Origin: an uncultured Planctomycetota bacterium
GTDB lineage: Bacteria > Planctomycetota > Planctomycetia > Isosphaerales > Isosphaeraceae
Length of the DNA stretch: 64,000 nt
Assembly: GCA_963737655.1 (NCBI GenBank)
Contig: CAVTTN010000002.1
Coordinates: 5,824,001-5,888,000, forward strand
Reading direction: 5' to 3'
The notes below the pieces were generated by a model, which saw nothing but the letters and a program-made list of their open reading frames with translations, ran no database searches and was not told the origin of the DNA. Shown here piece after piece: positions 49,245-64,000 of this stretch; position 1 is the stretch's first letter; each line of letters starts with the position of its first letter. Both the position numbers and the translations under genes were made by a program.

Positions 49245-51086
49245 ATGCCCGAATCCTCATCCTCCCCCGCCCTGCCCCGTCGCGAGTTCCTCCGCCGGGC
49301 CGCCGCCGCCTCGGTCGCCGTCCCCTTGCTGGCGTCTTCCGAGGCCCTGGGCGCGACCGCCCAGCGGGAGGCCGACGCCTTCCTCGCGAAATATGTCGAT
49401 GGCTGGCTCCCCCTCGAAGCCGCCGCCAATCAGGCGTCGTGGACCGCCTTGACCGACGTGACCGAGGCCCACACCGCCGCCCAGGTCGCGAAGAACCAGG
49501 CCCTCAACGAGTTCGTCGGCTCTCGCGAGGTCATCGACGGCGTCAAGTCCCTGCTCGCCCGCCGGGCCGAGCTCTCGGACCTGACCGTCCGCCAGCTCGA
49601 AAAGGCCCGCCTCCGCGCCGCCGAGGCCCCGGGCACCATCCCCGAAATCGTCAAGGAACGGACCGAGGCCGAGGCCCGCCAATCCGCCGTCCAGGACGGC
49701 TACACCTTCTTCATGGCCCGGGGCGCCCAGGGAGGCCCCGTCTCGGCCAACGAGATCGACGGCGTCCTCGTCGGGTCTCGCGACCTGCCGGAGAGGCTCG
49801 GGGCGTGGGCTGCGTCCAAGACGATCGGCCAGGCGCTCCGGCCGGGCCTCTTGAAGCTCCGCGACCTCCGCAACCGCGCGGCCCGCGAGCTCGGCTTCGA
49901 CGACTTCTTCGCCTTGCAGGTCGCCGACTACGGGATGACCACCGCCGAGATGATCGCCCTGTGCGACGGCTTCGTGGCGCAGGTCAAGCCCCTGTATGAA
50001 CAGCTCCACACCTGGGCCAAGCACGAGCTCGCCCGCCGCTACAAGGCCGACGCCCCCGACGGCAAGATCCCCGCCCACTGGCTCCCCAACCGCTGGGGCC
50101 AGAACTGGCCGGGCCTGGTCGAGGGCGTGGACATGGACGCCCCGTTCCAGGGCAAGACCAAGGAGTACATCACCGAGCAGGCCGAACGGTTCTACACCTC
50201 TTTGGGATTCCCCCCCCTGCCCCGATCCTTCTACGAGAAGAGCGACCTCTACCCGCCCGACCCCAAGTCCAACCGCAAGAAGAACTCGCACGCCAGCGCC
50301 TGGCACGTCGATCTGAAGCAGGACGTCCGCAGCCTGATGAGCATCGAGCCCGACTCCCGATGGTTCGGCACCGCCCACCACGAACTCGGCCATATTTACT
50401 ATTACATCAGCTATTCCACACCCCAGGTCCCGTACCTCCTCCGGGGCGGCGCCAATCGCGCCTTCCACGAAGGCATCGGCGACCTGATCGGCGTGGCGGC
50501 CGGCCAGAAGCCGTACTTGAAGCAGATGGGCCTGCTCACGCCCGAGGCCGAGAAGGCCGACACCGTCACCTACCTCCTCGACGCCGCACTCGACCGCTCG
50601 ATCACCTTCATCCCCTTCTCCGCCGGGACCATGACGAGGTTCGAGCGCGACTTCTACGCCGGGAGCATCCAGCCCGACGCCCTGAACGCCGCCTGGTGGC
50701 AGATCGTCGGGCAATACCAGGGGATCGCCCCGCCGATCGACCGGCCCGAGCACCTCTGCGACGCCGCCACCAAGACCCACATCAACGACGACCCGGCGCA
50801 ATACTACGACTACGCCATCGGGACCGTCCTGAAGTTCCAGCTCCACGACCACATCGCCCGCGAAATCCTCAAGCAAGACCCCCGCGAGTGCAATTACTAC
50901 GGGAACAAGAAGGTCGGCGACTTCCTCTCAGGAATCCTCGGCCTCGGGGCCACGAAAGACTGGAACACCGTCCTCCGAGACGCCACCGGCTCGGGCCTCT
51001 CCGCCGCGCCCATGGTCGCCTACTTCGAGCCGCTCAAGGCGTGGCTGGAGCAGAAGAACCAGGGCCGCAAAATCGGCTGGGGCTGA
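49245..51086 (+). CDS. Peptidase M2 (ACE-like peptidyl-dipeptidase) with Tat signal
   Basis: RREFLRR Tat motif; HHELGH zinc motif, GANRAFHEGIG, HASAW and LKFQLH. Confidence 0.92.
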   Translation: MPESSSSPALPRREFLRRAAAASVAVPLLASSEALGATAQREADAFLAKYVDGWLPLEAAANQASWTALTDVTEAHTAAQVAKNQALNEFVGSREVIDGVKSLLARRAELSDLTVRQLEKARLRAAEAPGTIPEIVKERTEAEARQSAVQDGYTFFMARGAQGGPVSANEIDGVLVGSRDLPERLGAWAASKTIGQALRPGLLKLRDLRNRAARELGFDDFFALQVADYGMTTAEMIALCDGFVAQVKPLYEQLHTWAKHELARRYKADAPDGKIPAHWLPNRWGQNWPGLVEGVDMDAPFQGKTKEYITEQAERFYTSLGFPPLPRSFYEKSDLYPPDPKSNRKKNSHASAWHVDLKQDVRSLMSIEPDSRWFGTAHHELGHIYYYISYSTPQVPYLLRGGANRAFHEGIGDLIGVAAGQKPYLKQMGLLTPEAEKADTVTYLLDAALDRSITFIPFSAGTMTRFERDFYAGSIQPDALNAAWWQIVGQYQGIAPPIDRPEHLCDAATKTHINDDPAQYYDYAIGTVLKFQLHDHIAREILKQDPRECNYYGNKKVGDFLSGILGLGATKDWNTVLRDATGSGLSAAPMVAYFEPLKAWLEQKNQGRKIGWG

Positions 51087-51100
51087 GCAGATCACCGGCC

Positions 51101-51165
51101 GGGTGGCATGCTTACGTCCGCGTAAGCATGTCTTCCTGCGACGCCCGCGCGGACATGCCCACCCA
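51101..51165. repeat. REP-like unit (GGGTGGCATGC family)
   Basis: GGGTGGCATGCTTACGTCCGCGTAAGCATGTC with a degenerate partner. Confidence 0.7.
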
Positions 51166-51937
51166 AACGCATGCATGTCTCCGCATGTTGTCCCGGAGGG
51201 TCCAGGCCCCAAACCAGGGGCCTCGGACCGTCCCCCGGGGGCATCCGATCACAAACCGAAGGGCGGATCACGGCAGACCTCCGAACCACGACCCGCACCA
51301 AGGCCGGAACCCCCGGCCCCAAGCGAGTCACCTTGCTCAAAACCATCGCGACCAACGCCCCCGACGATCACCCAATCCCAAAAATCGAACGGCGGCCCGA
51401 GAAACCACACGCCCTCGAAGGCCCTCGACCACGACCCGGGACTGCGCCGATTCGGACAGAAAACGAGCAAAAAGGCCCCGAAACCCCCTCGACGCAACTC
51501 CAGGAAGGGCCAGGACTTGAACGTGATACGAACAAAAAACTCAAATATGAGGATCGGACCCGCGTGCGCAGTCGCTGCGCGCTCGGAAACAGCCTGAAAA
51601 CCGCCGTTCCCGACGTTTCTCGGGAAAAAGTGTCGTCAACTTCCCCGAAAGTGTCGTCAACTTTCCCCCAACATCTGCGCTCACGCATCTCTAATTTCCT
51701 TCAAATCCACAGCGTCGAACAAATTTTCAAGATTCGCAGATTCGCACACCAGAACATCGGCAAGCTACCACTCTCAACTGCGACCCCCCTCTCCCGCGAC
51801 GACACTTCGGAGGGCAAGCCGCGGGCCGCCGTCATCGACGCAAGAACACCCCACCAAACTCCCCTTTCCCCCATCTTTCTCCGTGAATTTCGCAAATTAC
51901 CCCAAAGCTCCAAATTTCCCAAACCAACAGGAACAAG

Positions 51938-52332
51938 GAATCCTGCGAGGCCCCCTGCGCTCCGGGGGACGACCCGATCGAGACGCAACCGAGGAGGCCG
52001 CGACGCTCGTCGATTAGACCGCATCCACAGATTTATGAAAAATCAAATCTCGATTATATCAGCCTTGAACCGGCGGGTCGGCAAGGGCCGCCGATCTCCA
52101 AATTCGGGGTAACTCAGCTCGCACGTTGCCCCGGCTTTCTGATTTCCCGGCGGAGCACGCGGCGGGGATAACCCAGAGCACCCAGAACGCCAGGAAGGAA
52201 CCGGACCACCGGCCGAATCGAATCCAGGAGGAAAAAATCCAAGAAATTTCTTGCGGGGCGAGTTCCTCGCCGGCAAGATGAAAATCCGGCTCAGGATTAT
52301 ACGTCACTTTCGATGTCTACTTCATGTTAGGC
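51938..52332 (+). other. attI-like leader of cassette array 1
   Basis: About 390 bp homologous to 60449-60908. Homology ends just after ...GATGTCTACTTCAT-GTTAGGC (core 52326-52332), and no attC hairpin precedes the core. Confidence 0.7.
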
Positions 52333-52605
52333 GGAACGCCGCGAGGGTTGCCGGCGCTTGACGAGGCGGTTACGCTCGATGGCGCGTCGTGAGCTCGCTC
52401 GGCGACCGGTCGTCGAGCGCAACAGTCGCGCGGCCCGCGTCCCGGGATCGGGGGTGGCGTCCCGTCTAACTCCCGGTAGGCGGAACGGTCGTTCCGCCTA
52501 GCCATTCGGCGTTGAAGTGGATTGCTCGCGGGCCTTCCGTATCGGTCATATGCGCATGTGACGATGTATTTAATTCCTCATTAGCCGAAGTGAGGCCCGA
52601 CGACC

Positions 52606-52917
52606 ATGGCTCTAACGGCTTGCCCGGAGTGCGGGCGAGAGGTGTCCGACCGTGCCCCAACCTGCCCTCAGTGCGGGTGCCCGATCGCCAGCGCGACGCC
52701 CCGACCTCCCACCGCACCACCTCCAGCCCCGCGAACTCCCACACAACCACCTCAGGCCGCGCAGACGCATACCCGCAGCCAGGAGGTCGGCTCCTTCGAC
52801 AAGAGCTTCGGTAACGCGGCCGGGACCAGGCTCGGGTGCATGGCTGTGGGTGGGATCATACTTGCCATCTTATTCGTGTTCATAATGATTATCGCCGCCA
52901 TAGCCAACAGCCGGTAG
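52606..52917 (+). CDS. Cassette gene: zinc-ribbon protein with C-terminal TM
   Basis: MALTACPECGREVSDRAPTCPQCGCP plus hydrophobic tail. Confidence 0.8.
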   Translation: MALTACPECGREVSDRAPTCPQCGCPIASATPRPPTAPPPAPRTPTQPPQAAQTHTRSQEVGSFDKSFGNAAGTRLGCMAVGGIILAILFVFIMIIAAIANSR

Positions 52918-52974
52918 AGTCGGCCCGACGAAAAGGAGACGGGATGGAATGCCATCGTCACGAGTCGGCCGCCT

Positions 52975-53354
52975 CTTCGTGAACTCTTTGGCTGGGAACG
53001 GCCATCGACGCGCGACACTACCCCAACCCCAGGCTTTGTGGCCGGGCAGCGGCGAGGTCCGGGTAGCAAACCGACGGATTCAAGAGCGGCGGACGAGGCG
53101 CGGGCCGAGAGGGGAGTCGGTTACGCTTGCAGTCTCTTCGACGGGAACATCCCCGCGAGTCGGCTCGCGGGGCGTCGCCAATGACCGGATCACGACCTCT
53201 CGGGCCAGGCTAACCTACGGGCAGGGAGCACCAAGGTGGAGACGGCCGGGAGGCCCGCGCCACACTCAGGCTACGCCGCGCCGGGTCGGCGGGCAAGTCG
53301 TCCCCGACCCCCGTTCACGCCCCGTCGGGAGCGGACGAAGGCCGCAGGATGGTT
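52975..53354 (+). mobile_element. 380-bp attC-inserted non-coding element, copy 1
   Basis: GCCT|CTTCGTGAACTC...GCAGGATGGTT|AACCTCG; five copies of equal length. Confidence 0.9.
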
Positions 53355-53449
53355 AACCTCGCGCTGCAGCGGACCCGCACCGCCGCGACGGTTATCGTGC
53401 TATCATGGCTTACTCGGCGGTGCGGGTCCGCTGAGCTTTGGCGTTAGGC
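53355..53449 (+). other. attC site 1 (R'' box split; GCCT at 52971-52974)
   Basis: AAC-CTCGC-GCTGCAGCGGACCCGCACCGCCG..loop..CGGCGGTGCGGGTCCGCTGAGC-TTTGGC-GTTAGGC, with one unpaired base between the L boxes. Confidence 0.88.
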
Positions 53450-53564
53450 GGCGGAGAACACCCCGTCGTCGCGTCGTGCCTGAAACCTCCTATCATCACG
53501 TCGAAGCTCCCCCGATCAGGCTCGCAACACCGGTCGGGAGTGAACGGCGGGAGTCGATCGCGCC

Positions 53565-53930
53565 ATGGAGAATGCCTCGCACTACCGCGATGATCCCAGG
53601 CGATTAGAGGCCGCTGAGCTGTTGGGCACATTGTTCTCATCGGCTCCGCGTCCGGCGGCGGAAATCCTGACCATCGCGAGGAAGCTGGAGGGCCATGACG
53701 GGGTCGGGTTCTTCAAGTTGCCGGTCCCCTATTTCATCAAATCGAATGGTATCGTGCTTAAGTCCGGATTAAACTCGATGAGGGGCGCGGTGAGTTCGCT
53801 CATAGCCGATCTAGAGGCGATGGACCCAGCGGCACTCGTCGTCGTCGATATCGACGCCAGTGCCCTGGGCGGTGGCCTGGCACCTGAAGAGCCGGTGCCA
53901 CCCGACAGCCGACCGGACGCCTCTTCGTGA
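53565..53930 (+). CDS. Cassette gene: hypothetical protein
   Basis: 121-aa ORF between attC sites; its stop lies in element copy 2. Confidence 0.55.
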   Translation: MENASHYRDDPRRLEAAELLGTLFSSAPRPAAEILTIARKLEGHDGVGFFKLPVPYFIKSNGIVLKSGLNSMRGAVSSLIADLEAMDPAALVVVDIDASALGGGLAPEEPVPPDSRPDASS

Positions 53931-54302
53931 ACTCTTTGGCTGGGAACGGCCATCGACGCGCGACACTACCCCAACCCCAGGCTTTGTGGCCGGGCAGCGG
54001 CGAGGTCCGGGTAGCAAACCGACGGATTCAAGAGCGGCGGACGAGGCGCGGGCCGAGAGGGGAGTCGGTTACGCTTGCAGTCTCTTCGACGGGAACATCC
54101 CCGCGAGTCGGCTCGCGGGGCGTCGCCAATGACCGGATCACGACCTCTCGGGCCAGGCTAACCTACGGGCAGGGAGCACCAAGGTGGAGACGGCCGGGAG
54201 GCCCGCGCCACACTCAGGCTACGCCGCGCCGGGTCGGCGGGCAAGTCGTCCCCGACCCCCGTTCACGCCCCGTCGGGAGCGGACGAAGGCCGCAGGATGG
54301 TT
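53923..54302 (+). mobile_element. 380-bp attC-inserted element, copy 2
   Basis: Same sequence and GCCT|AAC junctions as copy 1. Confidence 0.9.
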
Positions 54303-54398
54303 AACCTCGCGCTGCAGCGGACCCCGCACCGCCGCGGCGCCTTCTCTGTTATCCTGCCCCTCTCGGCGGTGCGGGTCCGCTGAGCTTAGGTGTTAGGC
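54303..54398 (+). other. attC site 2
   Basis: Same stem with a different loop; GTTAGGC at 54392-54398. Confidence 0.88.
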
Positions 54399-54450
54399 GG
54401 CTCCAAAGAACCTCTGGCGTTATCGCCACCCTCGAAGTGGAGATTCAGCG

Positions 54451-55125
54451 ATGAGGAATCGAACAACGTCGCTATTTGTCAGTCTGGTCGTGATGGCCTC
54501 AGCCAGTGGCGCCAAGGGCGACCTACTTATCAACCCAGGGGCCGAGACGGGCGACCTGACCGGCTGGACCAAGGGCGGGGTCTCGAACCCGTTCGTCGAC
54601 AACGGGTCCTTCGACCCGGGCATCAATCCTCACTCCGGTCGCTTCGATTTCGTCGGCGGCACGGGCGCGTTCGGGACGCTCACCCAGAACGTCTCCTTGG
54701 CCGGCGCTCCGGGAGTTACCGACGCCCAGATCGATAGCGGGATCGTCTCTGCTCAGGTATCCTTCTGGGAGCAGGGACTCAACCAAGGCCCCACCAGCGA
54801 TAACGGCTTCGTCTCGCTCACCTTCCGTGACGCGAACAACTCGGTGTTGGGCACCGTCTCTACTCCAGTGATCGATTCTCACGACCTGACCTGGGAGAAC
54901 TTCACCGGGAGCTTCGCGGTCCTGGCTGGCACTCGTTCTATCGATTACACGATGAACTTCACGCGCCATGTCGGCAGCGATAACGATGCATTTTTCGACG
55001 ACAACAGCCTCACGGTCTCGGTTAATTCCGTGCCGGAGCCGACCAGTCTCTTTATGTTGGGGTCCGGTGCTCTGGCGGTTCTCGGCTACGCCCGGCGGCG
55101 AAGGGTGCAGACCGCCTCTTCGTGA
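54451..55125 (+). CDS. Cassette gene: PEP-CTERM surface protein
   Basis: Signal peptide, LLINPGAETGDLTGW and VPEPTSLFMLGSG..RRRR; stop supplied by element copy 3. Confidence 0.9.
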   Translation: MRNRTTSLFVSLVVMASASGAKGDLLINPGAETGDLTGWTKGGVSNPFVDNGSFDPGINPHSGRFDFVGGTGAFGTLTQNVSLAGAPGVTDAQIDSGIVSAQVSFWEQGLNQGPTSDNGFVSLTFRDANNSVLGTVSTPVIDSHDLTWENFTGSFAVLAGTRSIDYTMNFTRHVGSDNDAFFDDNSLTVSVNSVPEPTSLFMLGSGALAVLGYARRRRVQTASS

Positions 55126-55497
55126 ACTCTTTGGCTGGGAACGGCCATCGACGCGCGACACTACCCCAACCCCAGGCTTTGTGGCCGGGCAGCGGCGAGG
55201 TCCGGGTAGCAAACCGACGGATTCAAGAGCGGCGGACGAGGCGCGGGCCGAGAGGGGAGTCGGTTACGCTTGCAGTCTCTTCGACGGGAACATCCCCGCG
55301 AGTCGGCTCGCGGGGCGTCGCCAATGACCGGATCACGACCTCTCGGGCCAGGCTAACCTACGGGCAGGGAGCACCAAGGTGGAGACGGCCGGGAGGCCCG
55401 CGCCACACTCAGGCTACGCCGCGCCGGGTCGGCGGGCAAGTCGTCCCCGACCCCCGTTCACGCCCCGTCGGGAGCGGACGAAGGCCGCAGGATGGTT
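55118..55497 (+). mobile_element. 380-bp attC-inserted element, copy 3
   Basis: Same sequence and junctions as copy 1. Confidence 0.9.
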
Positions 55498-55593
55498 AAC
55501 CTCGCGCTGCAGCGGACCCCGCACCGCCGCGGCGCTCACTCTGCTATCATGGCTCACTCGGCGGTGCGGGTCCGCTGAGCTTTGTTGTTAGGC
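55498..55593 (+). other. attC site 3
   Basis: Hairpin ending in GTTAGGC at 55587-55593. Confidence 0.88.
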
Positions 55594-55615
55594 GGCGGGG
55601 TTAGGGGGGTCGTCG

Positions 55616-55981
55616 ATGCATGCGGGTCACCCCGAACCGACGGAGCGTTGGGGAGCGGTCCCCGAGTGGTACGCCGCTTTCGCTTCGGAGCGGCACTGGG
55701 AGTTTCTCACTCCCATGGTCGGCTTCACGCGATGGGTCGGCTCCTTGCCCATCGCCGCTATGCTGTATCCGCACACATCGCACGAATACCTTTGCGTGCA
55801 ACTGCGGCCCGGGCATCTTCCCGACGAGCCATTGGTCTTCGCATGCGTGCGCCCCGACGGTCAGTTCGAGTGCGGGCTCCAAGGGTGCAAGGGACAACTT
55901 CTGTCGTGTCGTACCAGCCCGATCGAGTCGGCTCACGATGCGTTCGCTTCGGCCCTCATCGGGTTGGGCCTCGTGGCCTGA
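55616..55981 (+). CDS. Cassette gene: hypothetical protein
   Basis: 121-aa ORF filling the space between attC 3 and the next R'' box. Confidence 0.55.
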   Translation: MHAGHPEPTERWGAVPEWYAAFASERHWEFLTPMVGFTRWVGSLPIAAMLYPHTSHEYLCVQLRPGHLPDEPLVFACVRPDGQFECGLQGCKGQLLSCRTSPIESAHDAFASALIGLGLVA

Positions 55982-56008
55982 TCCACCCGGCATCGGTCGA
56001 CGCCGCCT

Positions 56009-56388
56009 CTTCGTGAACTCTTTGGCTTGGAACGGCCATCGACGCGCGACACTACCCCAACCCCAGGCTTTGTGGCCGGGCAGCGGCGAGGTCCGGGTAG
56101 CAAACCGACGGATTCAAGAGCGGCGGACGAGGCGCGGGCCGAGAGGGGAGTCGGTTACGCTTGCAGTCTCTTCGACGGGAACATCCCCGCGAGTCGGCTC
56201 GCGGGGCGTCGCCAATGACCGGATCACGACCTCTCGGGCCAGGCTAACCTACGGGCAGGGAGCACCAAGGTGGAGACGGCCGGGAGGCCCGCGCCACACT
56301 CAGGCTACGCCGCGCCGGGTCGGCGGGCAAGTCGTCCCCGACCCCCGTTCACGCCCCGTCGGGAGCGGACGAAGGCCGCAGGATGGTT
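56009..56388 (+). mobile_element. 380-bp attC-inserted element, copy 4
   Basis: Same junctions; one substitution (GGCTTGGAAC vs GGCTGGGAAC). Confidence 0.9.
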
Positions 56389-56484
56389 AACCTCGCGCTG
56401 CAGCGGACCCGGCCCGCCGCGGCGCTTTCTGGTAATATCAAGGTCAATCTCGGCGGGCCGGTCCGCTGAGCTTTGTCGTTAGGC
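56389..56484 (+). other. attC site 4
   Basis: Stem variant CCCGGCCCGCCG/CGGCGGGCCGGG with compensatory changes; GTTAGGC at 56478-56484. Confidence 0.88.
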
Positions 56485-56501
56485 GGCGGAGGGCTACGGA
56501 G

Positions 56502-57398
56502 TTGAAGCGTGAAGCGCGACTCAACGAGACTATAGACGCAATCCTTGAGGATTTCATTGCGATCGGGTCGCCTCGTGCTGGTGCGCTGCTCAGCAACGAT
56601 GCTGATCCTGAATTCATCCGGGGTGTTCAGGCTGCGATTGTTTCGCTTGAAATGGGAATTTCATTATCTTATGCTGAAAAGCGATACGTCCCACCAGCAG
56701 GCCCAATCGTCCTCCCAAAACGGTACATCTTGTTTCAAGGCGCTTATCGTACCGCCGTTGATCATGTTAGTCGCATAAAGAAAAAGTGGAGACAGCGACC
56801 CGATGAGGAGCAGATTTGCAGTGTTGGCGGTATCGTGTTCTCAAATGTTGCTCTTCGGCGAGTGGAGGGCACCTTCCGCGCGGCGGGTCTATTGTTTCGA
56901 ATAGGATATATGCTCGAAGCCCGAGCAGTTGCACGAACTATTTTGGAACAAGTAGCGTGGTCTTATGCAGTCCGCGACATTATTGATTTTGATCAAGCAT
57001 CTAAATTGAGTCCTACAAAATGTATTTCGGAGTTAAAGAAATTGCTGCCTTACGTTGGGCGGCTTTATGGGGATTTAAGTGAAGAGACGCACCTAGGGTT
57101 GGAAGAGCATGGTCGCTTCCTGCGTATTGAGGGAAATACCTCGAAAGTGCTTTTTTGTCATGGCGAAGATAGTTGGGAGAGCGGGCTAGTTTTGTTGAAT
57201 TTGGCAGACATCTGGGCTGTTGTCTTTGAATGCTCCCAGCGAGCATTCGTGTTGCAGCCGGAATGCTGGTCCGCGAAAATCAACGGCTTCGAGCTCAACA
57301 AAGATCGCCCTATGGTCAAGACCATCGAAGAATACTACGCCGACGCCGATGGAATAGCTGAGATGGCGGCCGATCTCAGGGATAATGCGGACGCCTAA
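56502..57398 (+). CDS. Cassette gene: low-GC hypothetical protein (DUF5677-like motifs)
   Basis: 298 aa; ARAVARTILE and LYGDLSEETH; stop TAA lies within GCCTAA (R'' remnant). Confidence 0.75.
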   Translation: MKREARLNETIDAILEDFIAIGSPRAGALLSNDADPEFIRGVQAAIVSLEMGISLSYAEKRYVPPAGPIVLPKRYILFQGAYRTAVDHVSRIKKKWRQRPDEEQICSVGGIVFSNVALRRVEGTFRAAGLLFRIGYMLEARAVARTILEQVAWSYAVRDIIDFDQASKLSPTKCISELKKLLPYVGRLYGDLSEETHLGLEEHGRFLRIEGNTSKVLFCHGEDSWESGLVLLNLADIWAVVFECSQRAFVLQPECWSAKINGFELNKDRPMVKTIEEYYADADGIAEMAADLRDNADA

Positions 57399-57787
57399 AG
57401 GCGGAAAAGGGGACGAAGGCGGAAAAGGGGACGGAGGGAATTAGGGGCGGAAAAGGCGGAAAAGGGGACGGAGGGAATTAGGGGCGGAAAAGGGGTCAGG
57501 AGCCGAAAACGGGTTTATTTAGGCGCAGTTTCGGCTCCTGACCCCTTTTCCGCCCTCGTTTTCGGCTCCTGACCCCTTTTCCGCCTTTGACCCCTTTTCC
57601 GCCTTGACCCCTTTTCCGCCTCCCCGCAAATCCGGGGATTCTGCGCCACTTTCGATGTCTACTTCATGTGGGGCGGAAAAGGGGACGGTGGGAATAAACA
57701 AGATTAATACAACCTATTTATTCCCTCCGTCCCCTTTTCCGCCCCCCCGTCCCCTTTTCCGCCCCCCGTCCCCTTTTCCGCCCCCCG
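57399..57787. repeat. Cluster of GGCGGAAAAGGGG(AC/TC) direct and inverted repeats
   Basis: More than 10 units in both orientations, including the palindrome AAAAGGGGTCAGGAGCCGAAA..TTTCGGCTCCTGACCCCTTTT. Confidence 0.9.
57623..57669 (+). other. Truncated third attI-like fragment
   Basis: CCCGCAAATCCGGGGATTCTGCGCCACTTTCGATGTCTACTTCATGT matches 60857-60903 and stops inside the GTT core. Confidence 0.75.
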
Positions 57788-57850
57788 AAGGATGCTGTTG
57801 CGATTGAGTACGAGCAACGCTTTATCGATTCGTGCAGTTGAGCCGAGCGA

Positions 57851-59815
57851 TTACTCACCCCGGGAACCACCCGGCGCCCAGTTTCCGGCGAATTTGCCGG
57901 CCCGCAAGTCCGGCAACAACTTCAGGATGCAGTCTCCCGGGATGACCATACCTCCGTGCGGACCGGGCCTGGCGATCGTGACCCCGATCGCACGCCCGGT
58001 GAGATCTACGATGGGACCCCCGCACTCGTAGGTAAAGAACGGCACGGCGCACTCGATCACCGTGGGAAAGTCGTCCGCCCGATAGTTGGTGTCGCCGTAA
58101 CGCGTTTCCGGCGCCAGGGGGAGCAACAGATCCATCATCGTGCCGCCCCTCTCGAGGCGGACCGGCACGACGTCCCCTGCCCGTCGGTGCTTGACCGCTT
58201 CCAGGACGTCGGCTTCGGCCTGAACTGAGCGGCCGTCGATGCTACGCAGGAGATCGTGTGGCTTGATGCCGGCGGAATCGGCCAGGCCGAAGGCACCCGT
58301 AACGCGATAGACGGTCGCTCGGGGTAGGCCGAACGCGGCTCGCAGCGAGTAACCACCGATCGGCCGCGGGATTCCGTGGATTTTCGGGCGCCCGGCGGGT
58401 ATCCGCAACGGCAGGGTCTCGGTCGGACGGACCGGCGCAGCGAGATCGCGACGCGGTACGCTGACCACGCCGACGGCCAGCGGCTGCTCGGTGCCGACGG
58501 CCGTCAGGAGCGTCCCGAGCGGGGGATCGAAGTCATCGGCCCACCGCACCGGCTCCAGGCCCGACGCCGGCACCGTGAGCAAGGCCAGGTCGAATGCCGG
58601 GTCGACGCCGGCGACCCGTGCGGACACGACCTTGCCATCCGGGAGGCGGCACGTCGGCCGGTTGGGCAGTTCACTCGCCTTCGTGACCACCCATCCGTCG
58701 GCGGCGACGACCGTGCCCAGGGCGACGGCGACCCCCTCGTTCAGCACGACGACTACGCTGGGGCGAGTCGGCTCCGCGATCGACCGGTATCGAGCCAACG
58801 TCGCGGAGCCCTGGGAGTAGTCCGCCTGTTGGAGACGTGCGCTGGCAAGAAATTCGCCGTCGGTCCTGGCGACGCCCCCTTTGCCGGGCGGAGAGATCTC
58901 TCCGCTTCGCATCGTGTCCATCAGGGAGTCGATGAGCTTGCTCCCCGCGACTTGCCACAGGCCGAATCCGCCGCGACGCTGGAAGCCGGCGTCAAGATCA
59001 CGCCCGAGCGCCAGCCGTCCGTCGTTGCGATGCACGATCCCCAGCAACTTTCCGTCGAGGTCGAAGAAAGGGCCGCCCGAGTCGCCGCCGGCCACCATGC
59101 AATCAGTGGCAAAAAATTCCGCCGTCCCGCCGATCACGCGGCCGAGGCGCACGGGAGCGGATCGGTCCTTGCGGTATCCGAGCGGGTGGCCGATCTTGAG
59201 GACCCAGTCGCCCGCCTCGACCGGGGCCGTGGCGCTGAGCGGCACGTGCGGGTACGGACCGGGCTCGAGCAACCGCAGGAGAGAGAGGTCATAATCGCGA
59301 TTCGCGCCCAGCAGTTCGGCGGGGCACTCGCTGCCGTCGTGGAGGATGACCGTCGTCCTCTCGCCCGCCTTGCCGGACGGCCTGTCCGCCTGATTCGCCG
59401 CGTGGTGTCCATCCTCGGAAGGCTTCTCGTGGCTGACGTGCCACTGCGACAGGACGACCCCGTCGGCGGTGATGATCACCCCGGAGGCATGGTCCTGGTG
59501 TCGCCCCACCTTCGATGGCTTCTTGTAGGGATTCTTCACGGCAACGACGGACGGGAGAACCGCCCGGGCCGACCTGCGGACCCGTTCCTCCAGTTGCGTG
59601 AGGTCGCCCGCCTCACGCCGGACGGTCGGACCGACGCCGCGGTCGTATCCGACCACATCGTCCGCCTGGTCCGGCAAGTAAGTCATCCAGAGACGGATGG
59701 CCAGCCAGCCAGAGAAGACGGCGATGATGAACAATGAGATATAAGAAACTCGCGTTCGCCAGGTGCGACGGGAGCCGACGGCGGTGGTTGCGGGCCAGGC
59801 GGGCACCATTCGCAT
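57851..59815 (-). CDS. Trypsin-like serine protease with two protease-like domains and PDZ
   Basis: ASGVII..WHV, DLSLL and GGDSGGP; the second domain ends ECGGP (no Ser); N-terminal TM. Confidence 0.85.
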   Translation of the reverse strand: MRMVPAWPATTAVGSRRTWRTRVSYISLFIIAVFSGWLAIRLWMTYLPDQADDVVGYDRGVGPTVRREAGDLTQLEERVRRSARAVLPSVVAVKNPYKKPSKVGRHQDHASGVIITADGVVLSQWHVSHEKPSEDGHHAANQADRPSGKAGERTTVILHDGSECPAELLGANRDYDLSLLRLLEPGPYPHVPLSATAPVEAGDWVLKIGHPLGYRKDRSAPVRLGRVIGGTAEFFATDCMVAGGDSGGPFFDLDGKLLGIVHRNDGRLALGRDLDAGFQRRGGFGLWQVAGSKLIDSLMDTMRSGEISPPGKGGVARTDGEFLASARLQQADYSQGSATLARYRSIAEPTRPSVVVVLNEGVAVALGTVVAADGWVVTKASELPNRPTCRLPDGKVVSARVAGVDPAFDLALLTVPASGLEPVRWADDFDPPLGTLLTAVGTEQPLAVGVVSVPRRDLAAPVRPTETLPLRIPAGRPKIHGIPRPIGGYSLRAAFGLPRATVYRVTGAFGLADSAGIKPHDLLRSIDGRSVQAEADVLEAVKHRRAGDVVPVRLERGGTMMDLLLPLAPETRYGDTNYRADDFPTVIECAVPFFTYECGGPIVDLTGRAIGVTIARPGPHGGMVIPGDCILKLLPDLRAGKFAGNWAPGGSRGE

Positions 59816-59945
59816 CGGGGCATCTCCTCCGGGGAGGCCGTCGCCATCCGATTAAAGTCACTGGCCATAGGCTTGACGTGGGACGACGCTCGATTCTACC
59901 GGAATTCTACAATTGTCGGAATGCTCTCCTCCCAACCGAGTGAGG

Positions 59946-60252
59946 TCAGGTGTCGTAGGCCCCGCTCATGTTCAGCAGCCGGAGGATGCGACGTTGCAGG
60001 CGGCTCAACTTCGTAGTCAAGACCACCGCCGGGCGCCGGCCCGCTGACAACTCATGCCGCTGCACCTCCTCGAACAGGTCGATCACTTTCCGCGCCGTCG
60101 GCCGCCGACACGCTCGACCCTCCGGGTACAACGGCAGGCTCTCGATCCCCGCGCTTCCCATCGCTCGTCTCAGCTCCCGCTCCAGGAGCGACTCCACCAG
60201 CAAAGCCCAGAAAAAGACGCAGAGCAACGCCTGAATCCGGCTCACCTCCTTC
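59946..60252 (-). mobile_element. IS1634-like transposase C-terminal fragment
   Basis: LKEVSRIQALLCVFFWALLVESLLERELR..LPLYPEGR..RPTARKVIDLF..LSRLQRRILRLL; the 5' part is replaced by the GGCGGAAAGGGGG repeats. Confidence 0.75.
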
Positions 60253-60444
60253 AGGCGGAAAGGGGGACGAGGCGGAAAGGGGGACGCGAGGCGGAAAGGG
60301 GGACGGAGGGAATTATGAGCTTTCCGAGCCACTGAAGGCCGCCTCCCCGTGGGGACGGAAAAGGGGTCAGGGGACGGAAAAGGGGTCAGGAGCCGAAAAT
60401 GGATTTATTTAGGCCCATTTTCGGCTCCTGACCCCTTTTCCGCC
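60253..60444. repeat. GGCGGAAA(A/G)GGGG repeat cluster and palindrome
   Basis: Same family as 57399-57787; 60293-60350 is nearly duplicated at 62051-62113. Confidence 0.85.
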
Positions 60445-60448
60445 CAAA

Positions 60449-60908
60449 GAATCCTGCGAGGCCCCCTGCGCTCCGGGGGACGACCCGATCGAGACGCAAC
60501 CGAGGAGGCCGCGACGATCGTCCATTAGAACGAATCTACAGGTACAGAAAGAATCAAATATCGATTACGTCGGCCCCGAACCGGTGGGTCGGCAAGGTCC
60601 CCCGATCTCCGAATTCGGGGTAACCCAGCTCGCACGTTGCCCCAGTTTTCTGATTTCCCGGCGGAGCACGCGGCGAGGATAACCCAGAGCACCCAGAACG
60701 CCAGGAAGGAACCGGACCACCGGCCGGATCGAATCCAGGAGGAAAAAATCCAAGAAATCCCTTGCGAGGCGAGTTCCCCGCCGGCAAAATCAAAATCCGC
60801 CTCAGGATTATACGTGCTAAACGACGTGATAAGTCACGTCGTTTAGCACGTATAATCCCGCAAATTCGGGGATTCTGCGTCACTTTCGATGTCTGCTTCA
60901 TGTTAGGC
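60449..60908 (+). other. attI-like leader of cassette array 2
   Basis: Homologous to 51938-52332 and ends GATGTCTGCTTCAT-GTTAGGC (60902-60908); contains a 25-bp perfect inverted repeat at 60805-60858. Confidence 0.7.
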
Positions 60909-61033
60909 GGGCTTCGACTCGAACGACCGGACTGCCCGGCGCAGCCGGCACCGGTCGGGAAGTGTCGCAACCCAGGGGACCTCGGTAGAATCGATCGAGG
61001 TCGGTCGGCGATCTTCGAATCCCGGGGAGGGGC

Positions 61034-62044
61034 GTGATGGGAGTGTCGCACCCGATGAAACGGATCGTCCAGACATCCACGATGGTCGCATTGCTGGCCG
61101 TGGCCGGTAGGCCGGCTCGGGCCGACATGGCGACCTACGCATTCGCGCTCAACAACGCGGGGGTGACCGTCGGTGCCTATTACGACGAATCGAGCACCGT
61201 CCCCTACTATGGTCACGGCTTCCTCTATTCCGGCGGCCAGTACACGACTCTCGACGACCCCCTGGCGGCCTACGGCACGGAGGCGACCTCGATCAACAAC
61301 TCCGGTCAGGTTGTGGGAAATTATTTTGATGGCTCTGGCAAGTCACAGGACTTCCTCTATTCGGGGGGGATGTTCACCACGCTCAACCTCCCCTTCGGGA
61401 CGATCCGGAGCACCCAGGCGCTGGGGATCAACGACTCCTCGGCGATCGTGGGCTACTACGAAGACGGCTCGCGGGTCTATCACGGCTTCCTCTCCTCCGG
61501 GGGGGCCTATTCCACGATCGACGTCCCCGGCGCGAGCTTCACGGTCACGGCCGGGATCAACAACGCCGGCCAGATCGTGGGCAGTTTCGACGACGCCACC
61601 GGGGGCCACGGCTTCCTTTACTCCGGCGGGATCTTCACCGCGCTGGACGACCCCTTAGGAGTGAACGGCACGGTCGCTTCGGGGATCAATAATCTGGGCC
61701 AGATCGTCGGCTACTACACGGACAGCTCGAACAAGGCCCACGGCTTCATCGAGTCGGGCGGCCAGTACACCACGATTGACTATCCCGGCGGAATCAACGG
61801 CTCGTTCGCGAATGGGATCAACGACTCCGGATCGGTCGCCGGCTATTTCTACGACGACACGAACGGATTTCTGTATGCCAACGGGTCGTTTACCGTGCTC
61901 TCGGTGCCGGAGCCGTCGTCGCTCTTGCATTTCATGACCGCGTCGCTGGTCGGTCTCGGCGGGCTGATCCATCGTGGCCTGGCGGGACGCGGAAAAGGGG
62001 ACGGCGGAAATTGTGGGCCTGCCGAGTCGCCGAAGATCGCCTAA
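61034..62044 (+). CDS. Cassette gene: PEP-CTERM protein with HAF-like extracellular repeats
   Basis: Repeats GINNxGQIVGYY..HGFLYSGG and VPEPSSL; stop TAA lies within an intact GCCTAAC. Confidence 0.88.
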   Translation: MMGVSHPMKRIVQTSTMVALLAVAGRPARADMATYAFALNNAGVTVGAYYDESSTVPYYGHGFLYSGGQYTTLDDPLAAYGTEATSINNSGQVVGNYFDGSGKSQDFLYSGGMFTTLNLPFGTIRSTQALGINDSSAIVGYYEDGSRVYHGFLSSGGAYSTIDVPGASFTVTAGINNAGQIVGSFDDATGGHGFLYSGGIFTALDDPLGVNGTVASGINNLGQIVGYYTDSSNKAHGFIESGGQYTTIDYPGGINGSFANGINDSGSVAGYFYDDTNGFLYANGSFTVLSVPEPSSLLHFMTASLVGLGGLIHRGLAGRGKGDGGNCGPAESPKIA

Positions 62045-62049
62045 CCTCG
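62039..62049 (+). other. Uninterrupted attC start (empty target site), truncated by a repeat
   Basis: GCCTAACCTCG equals the left flank plus right flank of the five element insertions; followed by AGGCGGAAAAGGGGAC. Confidence 0.8.
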
Positions 62050-62201
62050 AGGCGGAAAAGGGGACGGAGGGAATTCTGAGCTTTCCGAGCCACTGAAGGC
62101 CGCCCCCACGGGGAGGCGACCTCTGCATGGCGCTTCCCTCGGCCGGGCGCTTCGTCTAGAGTGATCCCGACTCGGGGGCGGTCCGCAGACGAGAGGAACC
62201 C

Positions 62202-62588
62202 ATGCCCTTATTCGATGACGCCCCTCCCACGGACCATGCCGGCGGAGGCGGGAGCCGCTTCGATCCCATCAAAGTGCGGACTCGGCCGGCCTCCCGCCAG
62301 GAGCGGTATGTGAGCGGGGTCCTCCTGGCGTTCGGCTCGCTCGCCCTGTCGATGTGCGTTCAACAGACGTGGGCCCACGACTTCCGGGCCCCGAACAGCG
62401 GCTGGCGGCTATTCGGGATGTACCTGGTCCCGGCCGTCCTCTTTGCCCTCGCCCTCCATCAGAGGAGGGCCCGCCGCGTGATCGGGTCTGTTTCGGAGGA
62501 GGAGGGGGATGGCGACGGGAGGCGAGGAAAGGGGTCAGGAGCGAGGCGAGGAAAGGGGTCAGGAGCCGATTTTGGCGGGCGGGTCTGA
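62202..62588 (+). CDS. Hypothetical membrane protein; C-terminus runs into repeats
   Basis: RBS GAGGA and two TM segments; the tail is encoded by GAAAGGGGTCAGGAG repeats (62520-62615). Confidence 0.55.
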   Translation: MPLFDDAPPTDHAGGGGSRFDPIKVRTRPASRQERYVSGVLLAFGSLALSMCVQQTWAHDFRAPNSGWRLFGMYLVPAVLFALALHQRRARRVIGSVSEEEGDGDGRRGKGSGARRGKGSGADFGGRV

Positions 62589-62666
62589 GAATCGGCTCCT
62601 GACCCCTTTCCGCCTCCCGGGCGGCGGAAGACAGGTTACGTCCATTCCGATCTTGGAGGTTAGAAC

Positions 62667-62897
62667 ATGAGCGCGGAACCAACTCGGTGTACCAAGTGCA
62701 ACGGCGAGATGGAGCAGGGGTTCCTCTTCGAGTCCGAGGGTCACAGTCTCGACACCTGGGTCGAGGGGACGCCGGAGAAGTCTTGGTGGGGGGGCGCGAA
62801 GGTTCCGAAGGAAAAGCGCATGCCGGTGGGCACCTTCCGGTGTTCGGTGTGCGGATTCTTGGAATCCTATGCGCGGCCAGAGTTCGGCACGAATTAA
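62667..62897 (+). CDS. Small zinc-ribbon protein (DUF6487/PF20097-like)
   Basis: CTKCNGEMEQGF..W..G.P..TFRCSVCGFLESYA; RBS GGAGGT. Confidence 0.75.
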   Translation: MSAEPTRCTKCNGEMEQGFLFESEGHSLDTWVEGTPEKSWWGGAKVPKEKRMPVGTFRCSVCGFLESYARPEFGTN

Positions 62898-62979
62898 CGC
62901 CGCATCGCCCGTAGAGAGACAAATGGGGTCAGTTCAATAGGTCGGCCCAGTTACCCATTCAGGCCGGGCCGAGACGCCT

Positions 62980-63359
62980 CTTCGTGAACTCTTTGGCTGG
63001 GAACGGCCATCGACGCGCGACACTACCCCAACCCCAGGCTTTGTGGCCGGGCAGCGGCGAGGTCCGGGTAGCAAACCGACGGATTCAAGAGCGGCGGACG
63101 AGGCGCGGGCCGAGAGGGGAGTCGGTTACGCTTGCAGTCTCTTCGACGGGAACATCCCCGCGAGTCGGCTCGCGGGGCGTCGCCAATGACCGGATCACGA
63201 CCTCTCGGGCCAGGCTAACCTACGGGCAGGGAGCACCAAGGTGGAGACGGCCGGGAGGCCCGCGCCACACTCAGGCTACGCCGCGCCGGGTCGGCGGGCA
63301 AGTCGTCCCCGACCCCCGTTCACGCCCCGTCGGGAGCGGACGAAGGCCGCAGGATGGTT
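62980..63359 (+). mobile_element. 380-bp attC-inserted element, copy 5
   Basis: Same sequence and GCCT|AAC junctions, in the second array. Confidence 0.9.
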
Positions 63360-63456
63360 AACCTCGCGCTGCAGCGGACCCCGGCCACGGGCCGCGTTTT
63401 TTCTGATCTCGAGCTCACTGTTCCGTGGCCGGGTCCGCTGAACTTGGTCGTTAGGC
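63360..63456 (+). other. attC site 5
   Basis: Stem CCCGGCCACGG/CCGTGGCCGGG; GTTAGGC at 63450-63456. Confidence 0.88.
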
Positions 63457-63636
63457 GGCGTCGAGCGACGGCCCCCGATGAACTCGAAGTCGTCTTCGGC
63501 TAGAGGCCGGGTGCATGAGTCAACGGGCGGCCACTTCCTCAGGAAGAATAAACTGATACCTTATTCCCCCTATTCCCCTGCAAGCATGACCTCCTGCGAA
63601 TGAGCCGAGCCGAGACGGAAAAGCTCTGGAGGAACA

Positions 63637-64000
63637 ATGCGTTCTTTCCTCTTCGCCCTGATCCCGGGCCTCTTCCTGGCCGACTCCTCGCGGGCCGATG
63701 ATCCGCCCGGGCCGCCGCCGCTGAAGATCGCCGGTACGCAAATCCAGACCCTCGATGGGAAGGCCGTGCGCCTGCGAGGTGTCAATCTCCCCGGCCTGAT
63801 GTGGGGCGAGAGGGCACACCTTGGGTCGTCGATCCGCGTCGCTACCGAAGAGTGGGGCGCCAACATCATCCGGGTGTGCCTGTCGCCGGATCTCTGGTAT
63901 GGCAAGGCGAAGGGGGACAAGGACGGAGGCGCAGGCTACCGTAAGACCGTGCATGCCGTCGTCGACCAGGTAGCCGCCCGGCACTGCTACGTGATCCTCG
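63637..64000 (+). CDS. Glycoside hydrolase family 5-like protein, partial (runs off window end)
   Basis: Own translation: signal peptide, LKIAGTQI..DGKAVRLRGVN, WGANIIRV and VDQVAARHCYVIL; RBS GGAGGA. Confidence 0.8.
   Translation, partial: MRSFLFALIPGLFLADSSRADDPPGPPPLKIAGTQIQTLDGKAVRLRGVNLPGLMWGERAHLGSSIRVATEEWGANIIRVCLSPDLWYGKAKGDKDGGAGYRKTVHAVVDQVAARHCYVIL

Follow-up and report, generated by a model that had tools for sequence, protein, structure and literature searches.

The 380-bp mini and its attC targets

The window analyzed here is a 64,000-nt stretch of contig C2 from an uncultured Planctomycetota bacterium, whose genome comprises 7.63 Mb in three contigs. Towards its end it carries five copies of a 380-bp gene-less repeat, hereafter called the mini, each inserted in the attC site of an integron cassette; the term helper denotes the resident full-length IS110-family element. 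The copies occupy positions 52975 to 53354, 53923 to 54302, 55118 to 55497, 56009 to 56388, and 62980 to 63359, all on the minus strand, where a sequence-only reading of the window had placed them, and they align without gaps, the sole difference being a G>T substitution in copy 4. In the orientation of the recombinase, the left end of copy 1 is at 53354 and its right end at 52975. Every copy is flanked by GCCT and AACCTCG, and the attC loops that follow are all different, both as claimed. The corresponding attC bodies lie on the plus strand at 53355 to 53449, 54303 to 54398, 55498 to 55593, 56389 to 56484, and 63360 to 63456; in the first of them the R'' box is split, with GCCT at 52971 to 52974 and AAC starting at 53355. 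The empty R'' target that had been taken as the uninterrupted form, GCCTAACCTCG at 62039 to 62049 on the plus strand, is present but belongs to a truncated attC, the remainder of which has been replaced by another repeat. The sequence-only reading had also described the element as lacking a long terminal inverted repeat, to which we add a short sub-terminal one, CGTGAAC / GTTCACG, set 35 nt inside one end and 3 nt inside the other (minus-strand positions 53313 to 53319 and 52978 to 52984 in copy 1). Its opinion that no credible open reading frame exists agrees with the finding that the single open frame, of 126 codons, is broken in two of the three close homologues tested, namely, that of G003, a genome of another species in the same genus, and one copy of subfamily B, described hereafter.

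Genome-wide, 28 full-length minis were retrieved by BLAST, forming 10 haplotypes that are 87 to 100% identical; 15 copies are identical, a second subfamily (B) stands at about 88%, and one copy is a mosaic of A and B. All 28 are inserted at GCCT|AAC of an attC R'' box and precede an attC left arm, and no copy was found at an unrelated target. For the census of attC sites, a left-arm pattern gave 476 raw matches, 81 of which were retained on account of a right arm or an insertion; a further site, a mini whose attC is truncated, completed the set. Among the resulting 82 sites, 28 carry a mini, 8 carry a full-length insertion sequence (IS), and 46 are empty, so that the occupation of every intact attC holds within the window but not across the genome. 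The 36 insertions are all at one base and without target duplication, as had been proposed, and one cassette was found in both states, empty at C2:6787902 and filled at C2:1971445, while two cassettes are each filled at two loci. Removal of the insertion rebuilds CTAACCT at 36 of 36 filled sites; among the 46 empty sites, 16 have this sequence and 30 do not. None of the 30 attCs mismatched to the predicted target guide described in the next section is filled (p = 4.6e-11 for filling versus guide match, the sites not being fully independent), and when sites are collapsed to 68 distinct cassette ends, the filled ones comprise 33 matched and 0 mismatched versus 13 and 22 for the empty ones (p = 4.2e-9). 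Since about 15 of the 21 occurrences of the 9-mer GCCTAACCT in the main contig fall at attC or attC stubs, a linear guide would be nearly sufficient to find attC in this genome.

Two attCs with GGTT in place of GCCT, at G000:C2:4298600 (minus strand) and C2:819745 (plus strand), have neither a mini nor a full-length IS; at one of them a short stretch resembles an element end and may represent a third element or a scar. Several arrays (G000:C2:283900-285400, 1673500-1674500) contain tandem repeats of a gene-less cassette of about 330 bp, the attC of which has AACCC and is never filled.

A full-length relative and a bridge-RNA-like region

A long version with an enzyme gene, inserted at the same attC base as the mini, is found in this genome. 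It measures 1784 to 1802 bp and has a 450-aa protein encoded on its minus strand, with the Pfam domains DEDD_Tnp_IS110 and Transposase_20. Six copies are intact, with D, E, D, and D and the C-terminal Ser motif, and two are broken; the two domains together with these residues assign the helper to the IS110 group of the IS110 family. The description of the mini as a non-autonomous, sequence-specific attC parasite is supported, and the enzyme that would mobilize it in trans, an IS110 DEDD recombinase, is among the candidates that had been named. A long non-coding region of the kind that lies upstream of the gene and holds a two-loop RNA was recognized in both helper and mini. Positions 125 to 285 of the mini share 75% identity with the non-coding stretch that precedes the helper's gene, a 7-bp sub-terminal repeat is common to the two, and the last 125 nt of the mini align with the right ends of full elements of this clade. 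On account of this homology, the mini is a left end joined to a right end without the gene; as is typical of an IS110-derived miniature inverted-repeat transposable element (MITE), it has IS ends but no transposase, dispersed copies, and a full element in the same genome. The layout of the ends (A box, B box, and AG core) is that of the ISPpu9-like clade, an assignment based on end layout with the spacing compared by eye with a published supplement. We consider it likely that the mini is a gene-less ISPpu9-like IS110 insertion sequence, in which a left end with a bridge RNA is joined to a right end and which would be mobilized by an enzyme supplied in trans. No protein named ISPpu9 was among the plasmid matches, whose labels are the generic "IS110 family transposase."

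The bridge-RNA-like region of copy 1 spans 53093 to 53251 on the minus strand and is predicted to fold into a target-binding lobe followed by a donor-binding lobe; in the other copies it lies at 54041 to 54199, 55236 to 55394, 56127 to 56285, and 63098 to 63256 on the same strand. The consensus fold from 17 regions of minis and full elements has two lobes and 32 pairs, with 95.8% of cells paired and a covariation of 0.259 versus 0.143 in shuffled and at most 0.12 in slid controls, values scored on the same rows from which the fold was derived and with seven of the eight doubly changing pairs in one helix. Single-sequence folding of the whole 380 nt was no better than shuffles on either strand (z of 0.17 and -0.65), and support for the structure thus comes from the alignment alone. 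An Rfam scan of positions 51000 to 64000 gave no match on the mini, only sub-threshold hairpin matches on other repeats. All 36 matches of our RNA model in the genome lie on minis or on the 450-aa element; another IS110 (429 aa, C2:4848044 region, with one broken copy near 287100) was set aside as a helper, since the RNA model has no match on it. Just upstream of the RNA region of copy 1 there is a promoter-like TTGCCC-17 nt-TAGCCT (53268 to 53296, minus strand), which is below the threshold of a strict scan and whose position is kept in the minis of G003 and of locus L047.

In copy 1, the predicted left target guide, AGGTTAG (53210 to 53216, minus strand), equals the attC bottom strand across the insertion point, i.e., 5 nt plus the AG core, and the predicted left donor guide, CGAAG-AG (53134 to 53140, minus strand), equals the mini's own right end plus core, CGAAG and AG, at the junction (52973 to 52979, minus strand). 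The helper has the same target guide, AGGTTAG, and a donor guide, CGGGG-AG, that matches its own end. The generality of this correspondence was assessed at 79 loci of recombinase relatives, 38 of which were parsed by a fixed pattern that failed on the other 41. In 23 of 24 distinct elements, the second-loop 6-mer, taken as donor guide, recurs at the right end of the same element (26/448 cross pairs), and in 20 of 21 the first-loop 5-mer, taken as target guide, recurs at its left boundary (60/400 cross pairs). Both a left target guide, matching the target to the left of and including the core, and a left donor guide, matching the right end plus core, are thus discernible, and they follow the rule established for the left target and left donor of IS621 (PMC11208160). 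A probable right target guide strand (53233 to 53242, minus strand) matches the attC right flank partially and weakly; in relatives, a 5-nt perfect complement was found in 5/19 own versus 5/342 cross pairs, likewise weak. Guides and ends are constant in copies of as little as 83 to 88% identity, while neighboring bases drift by 12 to 17%, and the mini of L047 has TGAAG in guide and end alike.

Comparison at the sequence level therefore establishes that the mini has ends and an RNA region of the IS clade, that an intact recombinase is encoded in the genome, and that the predicted target and donor guides equal the R'' site and the mini's own end, respectively. The mini seems to have retained nothing of an RNA-guided, IS110-type recombinase but its guide RNA, and the enzyme is probably borrowed from the full-length relative in the same genome.

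Lineage, proposed mobilization, and surroundings of the minis

A mini homologue 83% identical to that of the window is inserted at the same attC base in G003, where four matches include one complete copy; another genome, G002, has a full element in attC. At L047, a mini homologue (L047:1830-2215) stands in tandem directly behind a full element with 85% protein identity, on a contig of 2.3 kb whose bin label may be wrong. Since the target guide of this mini mismatches its flank, the arrangement suggests that the full IS and the mini moved as one unit, like ISPpu9 with ssr9. In a tree of 24 left-end/RNA regions, the root of which is arbitrary, the four minis group together (99/99), apart from the resident full element, which belongs to another clade (100/99). 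Given this separation and its occurrence in three genomes, the mini lineage is to be regarded, from its sequence relationships, as old and gene-less, and not as derived by deletion from today's helper. A short stretch of the first stem common to subfamily A and the helper suggests an exchange between them. No cognate autonomous parent was found, since none of the 29 matches obtained when scanning a metagenome collection with an 18-nt pattern for the mini's donor guide, a narrow search restricted to exact matches, extends past the pattern or adjoins a recombinase gene. More broadly, the RNA model has matches in 25 of 121 genomes of the family; 29 outside loci were read and 21 parsed, of which 14 have the gene, 3 are cut or interrupted, and 4 are gene-less and closed. 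Three of these last four (L166, L167, and L170, in G088, G014, and G084), which measure about 480 bp and have the same RNA, constitute a second, separate gene-less mini clade; the mini at L166 is located at an attC of this family. A more distant relative in Chloroflexota (L121 and L125) has the target guide TTGTTAG and flanks GTTGTT-AG-GCGGC, like a canonical attC box, and a separate attC targeting within this clade is possible.

In the mechanism that we propose, a bridge RNA would be transcribed from the minus strand of the mini, as expected from IS110 biology, and would load the recombinase of the helper; the mini would then give rise, by copying or excision, to a circle closed at the A(G/A) core, which would be inserted at GGTT^AG of the attC bottom strand without duplication. 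A bridge RNA expressed from the integrated IS110 element is reported to load the recombinase and to drive both excision of the element as a circle and its insertion (PMC13626964), whereas copy-out is the route given for another IS110 (bioRxiv 10.1101/2025.10.25.684509). Cross-use of the enzyme is plausible because similar seekRNAs accompany transposases that are only 46% identical, according to the comparison made by Siddiquee et al. (PMC11187229). Left junctions read AA and right junctions AG, for which reason the exchange would take place at the shared A. As the donor guide of the mini has A at a position where the end of the helper has G, the mini RNA would direct the borrowed enzyme toward minis and away from the helper, which fits the 28 minis versus 8 full copies. 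Since the G of the helper guide can wobble on the T of the mini, whereas the A of the mini guide cannot pair with the C of the helper, the pairing would entail a selfish bias and also leave room for a passive mini. Landing at the outer edge of attC would allow the core hairpin to survive and place the mini between the gene and its attC; filled attCs keep AAC and the inner hairpin, while the outer box is weakened, with a bottom-strand fold of -35.7 versus -45.0 kcal/mol. Three small-share DNA sequencing runs include attC arms and one cassette but not the mini, and none of their contigs spans an insertion point.

Several observations weigh against such a guide-carrying element served by the resident enzyme. 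Because the RNA of the mini is only 75% like that of the helper and the two fall in different clades, the resident IS is deemed the helper by co-occurrence only, in a genome that is 87.7% complete. The promoter-like site fails in subfamily B, and a strict promoter and terminator scan returned 0 sites. The right target guide of the mini matches the attC flank only partly, the right donor guide was not located at the guessed position (1/14 own versus 12/180 cross pairs), and the target guide of the L047 mini has extra bases and no match to its flank. Some copies are mosaics, so that conversion also spreads minis. Finally, two G-T wobbles would allow the helper donor guide CGGGG to pair with the end of the mini, and the mini's own RNA may thus be dispensable. 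This last point, together with the target guide common to helper and mini, favors a passive IS110 MITE using both the recombinase and the bridge RNA of the helper, its own RNA region being a relic or an antisense sponge or regulator, as proposed for Ssr9, which in the accounts of PMC12288879 and PMC8450116 is an Asr9 sponge not required for ISPpu9 transposition. However, the donor guide of the mini tracks its own end, down to the matching C>T in guide and end at L047, and the guides are fixed amid the drift of their neighboring bases; we deem the passive explanation unlikely.

If the copies had multiplied chiefly through duplication of cassettes and through gene conversion, with transposition now rare, the two cassettes filled at two loci each and the A/B mosaic would be accounted for, but this scenario is very improbable in view of the 33 distinct cassette ends filled, the 15 identical copies, the cassette found both empty and filled, and the exact agreement between filling and guide match. 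We attach next to no credence to the mini being a remnant of a group IIC-attC intron or a product of the integron integrase or of an HUH enzyme, which is already refuted by its clear homology to IS110 ends and RNA region. The ends of group II introns follow the consensus GUGYG...AY, from which those of the mini differ, Rfam has no group II intron match over 51000 to 64000, and the mini contains neither intron RNA domains nor a reverse transcriptase (RT) gene. What speaks for this origin is that the genome has IntI and three RT-domain matches and that IIC-attC introns, as described in PMC3001079, also enter the attC bottom strand between gene and attC. The chance that the mini belongs to every attC of this family as an integral part, or that it arose as an artifact of assembly, is just as negligible; all five intact attCs of the window do carry it, but the 46 empty sites out of 82, the 10 haplotypes, and the 83% homologue that another species, G003, has at this attC base already refute both.

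With regard to the surroundings, a single integron integrase gene was found in the genome (C2:6777135), and the arrays of the window have no integrase, yet are headed by the attI-like motif that adjoins it. Beside intI this motif lies at C2:6778256, with eight matches in the main contig; its copies at window positions 52306 to 52334, 57648 to 57676, and 60882 to 60910 head integrase-less arrays. A palindromic repeat with AAAAGGGGACGG arms has 74 matches and is located at the exact truncation points of attC hairpins and of two IS110 copies (window positions 57400 to 57790, 60270 to 60450, 62050 to 62075, and 62530 to 62620; C2:1680718 and 6792334); it looks like another mobile or deletion-causing repeat. 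Among the cassette genes of the window (54451 to 55125 and 61034 to 62044) are one for a PEP-CTERM protein and one for a second repeat-rich protein, which ends in a similar VPEP tail. A frame of 128 codons at 59946 to 60332 on the minus strand has no Pfam match and resembles the C-terminal remnant of a transposase.

Significance and comparison with known systems

Taken together, the data lead us to entertain, at slightly below even chances, a view of the minis as long-lived parasites reduced to a guide RNA, which would have their own bridge RNA, redirect a non-cognate recombinase to their own ends by a donor guide that the helper's end does not satisfy, and, as identical 380-bp joints between gene and attC in a third of the cassettes, let genes swap attCs and give rise to new cassettes. 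Two attCs each occur with two different upstream flanks or genes, and both cases involve a mini (2/2121 pairs with a filled site and 0/988 empty-empty pairs); these shared attCs offer a hint, and only that, of mini-mediated swapping. Group IIC-attC introns were proposed to join genes to attC sites, and the mini is a candidate joint for such reshuffling, which bears on how cassettes arise. For integron biology it represents a third kind of attC-seeking element, at the R'' edge, which together with its full-length relative fills 36 of 82 sites in one genome. The mini would be a natural minimal bridge-recombination cassette, made of two ends and a guide RNA, and its clade, with an AG core, a 450-aa enzyme, and an apparently IS1111-like guide order, offers guides naturally matched to their targets as a resource for programmable recombination. 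Should the RNA prove functional, a bridge recombinase would accept a foreign RNA in nature, changes in the donor guide would be a means by which parasites contend for the enzyme, and Ssr9 of MITEPpu9 would be worth re-reading as a guide RNA.

As described in PMC11208160 and PMC11187229, IS621 and ISEc21 resemble the helper in having DEDD and Transposase_20 domains and a long non-coding region upstream of the gene, and they share with the present elements a two-loop RNA, guides matching target and donor, and the absence of target duplication. Unlike them, the mini has no recombinase gene and its core is AG instead of CT, and the order of its guides, for which support is weak, is top strand before bottom strand, as reported for IS1111-type seekRNAs. 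The IS1111-attC group (ISKpn4, ISPst6, and ISPa25 in PMC11187229) has in common with the mini the RNA-guided insertion at one attC position, but its members are described as autonomous, with the RNA downstream of the gene and inverted repeats of 11 to 13 bp located 7 and 3 nt from the ends; the elements studied here do not belong to it, since their RNA is upstream of the gene and their repeat is of 7 bp, at 35 and 3 nt. Group IIC-attC introns (PMC3001079) share with the mini the insertion in the attC bottom strand and the separation of the gene from its attC, and are described with a ribozyme and a reverse transcriptase, neither of which is in the mini.

The closest precedent is MITEPpu9, the ssr9 module of ISPpu9 in Pseudomonas putida KT2440, as presented in PMC12288879 and PMC8450116, and together with the bridge-RNA-like region with its own guides and the old gene-less lineage, it is what the present analysis adds to the sequence-only reading. 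According to these descriptions, both elements are gene-less, with IS110 ends and an AG core, and have equal end spacing, with the left-end inverted motif at 38 to 42 and the right end 5 nt plus AG after the motif; in both, the RNA resembles the leader of the transposase mRNA, Ssr9 being complementary to the antisense RNA of that leader, and MITEPpu9 can stand in tandem behind the full IS, as does the mini at L047. Circles of MITEPpu9 were detected (PMC12288879). Its target is REP, whereas that of the mini is attC. The literature searched, which left most subscription papers, bioRxiv supplements, and ISfinder outside, does not describe any IS110 mini that carries a guide and is inserted in attC, and in the parts of PMC12288879 considered here, Ssr9 is treated as a sponge or hitch-hiker, with no guide function assigned. 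MITEPpu9 is reported in eight copies in three near-clonal strains, with ends 1 to 3 mismatches from those of its helper, whereas the mini occurs in three genomes, forms a clade apart from the helper, carries its own donor guide, and numbers 28 copies versus 8 full ones. The IS110-derived MITE is thus a type already known; of interest here are the retained, self-specific guide, the old gene-less lineage that would live on an enzyme not cognate to it, and the large share of attC sites that are filled.

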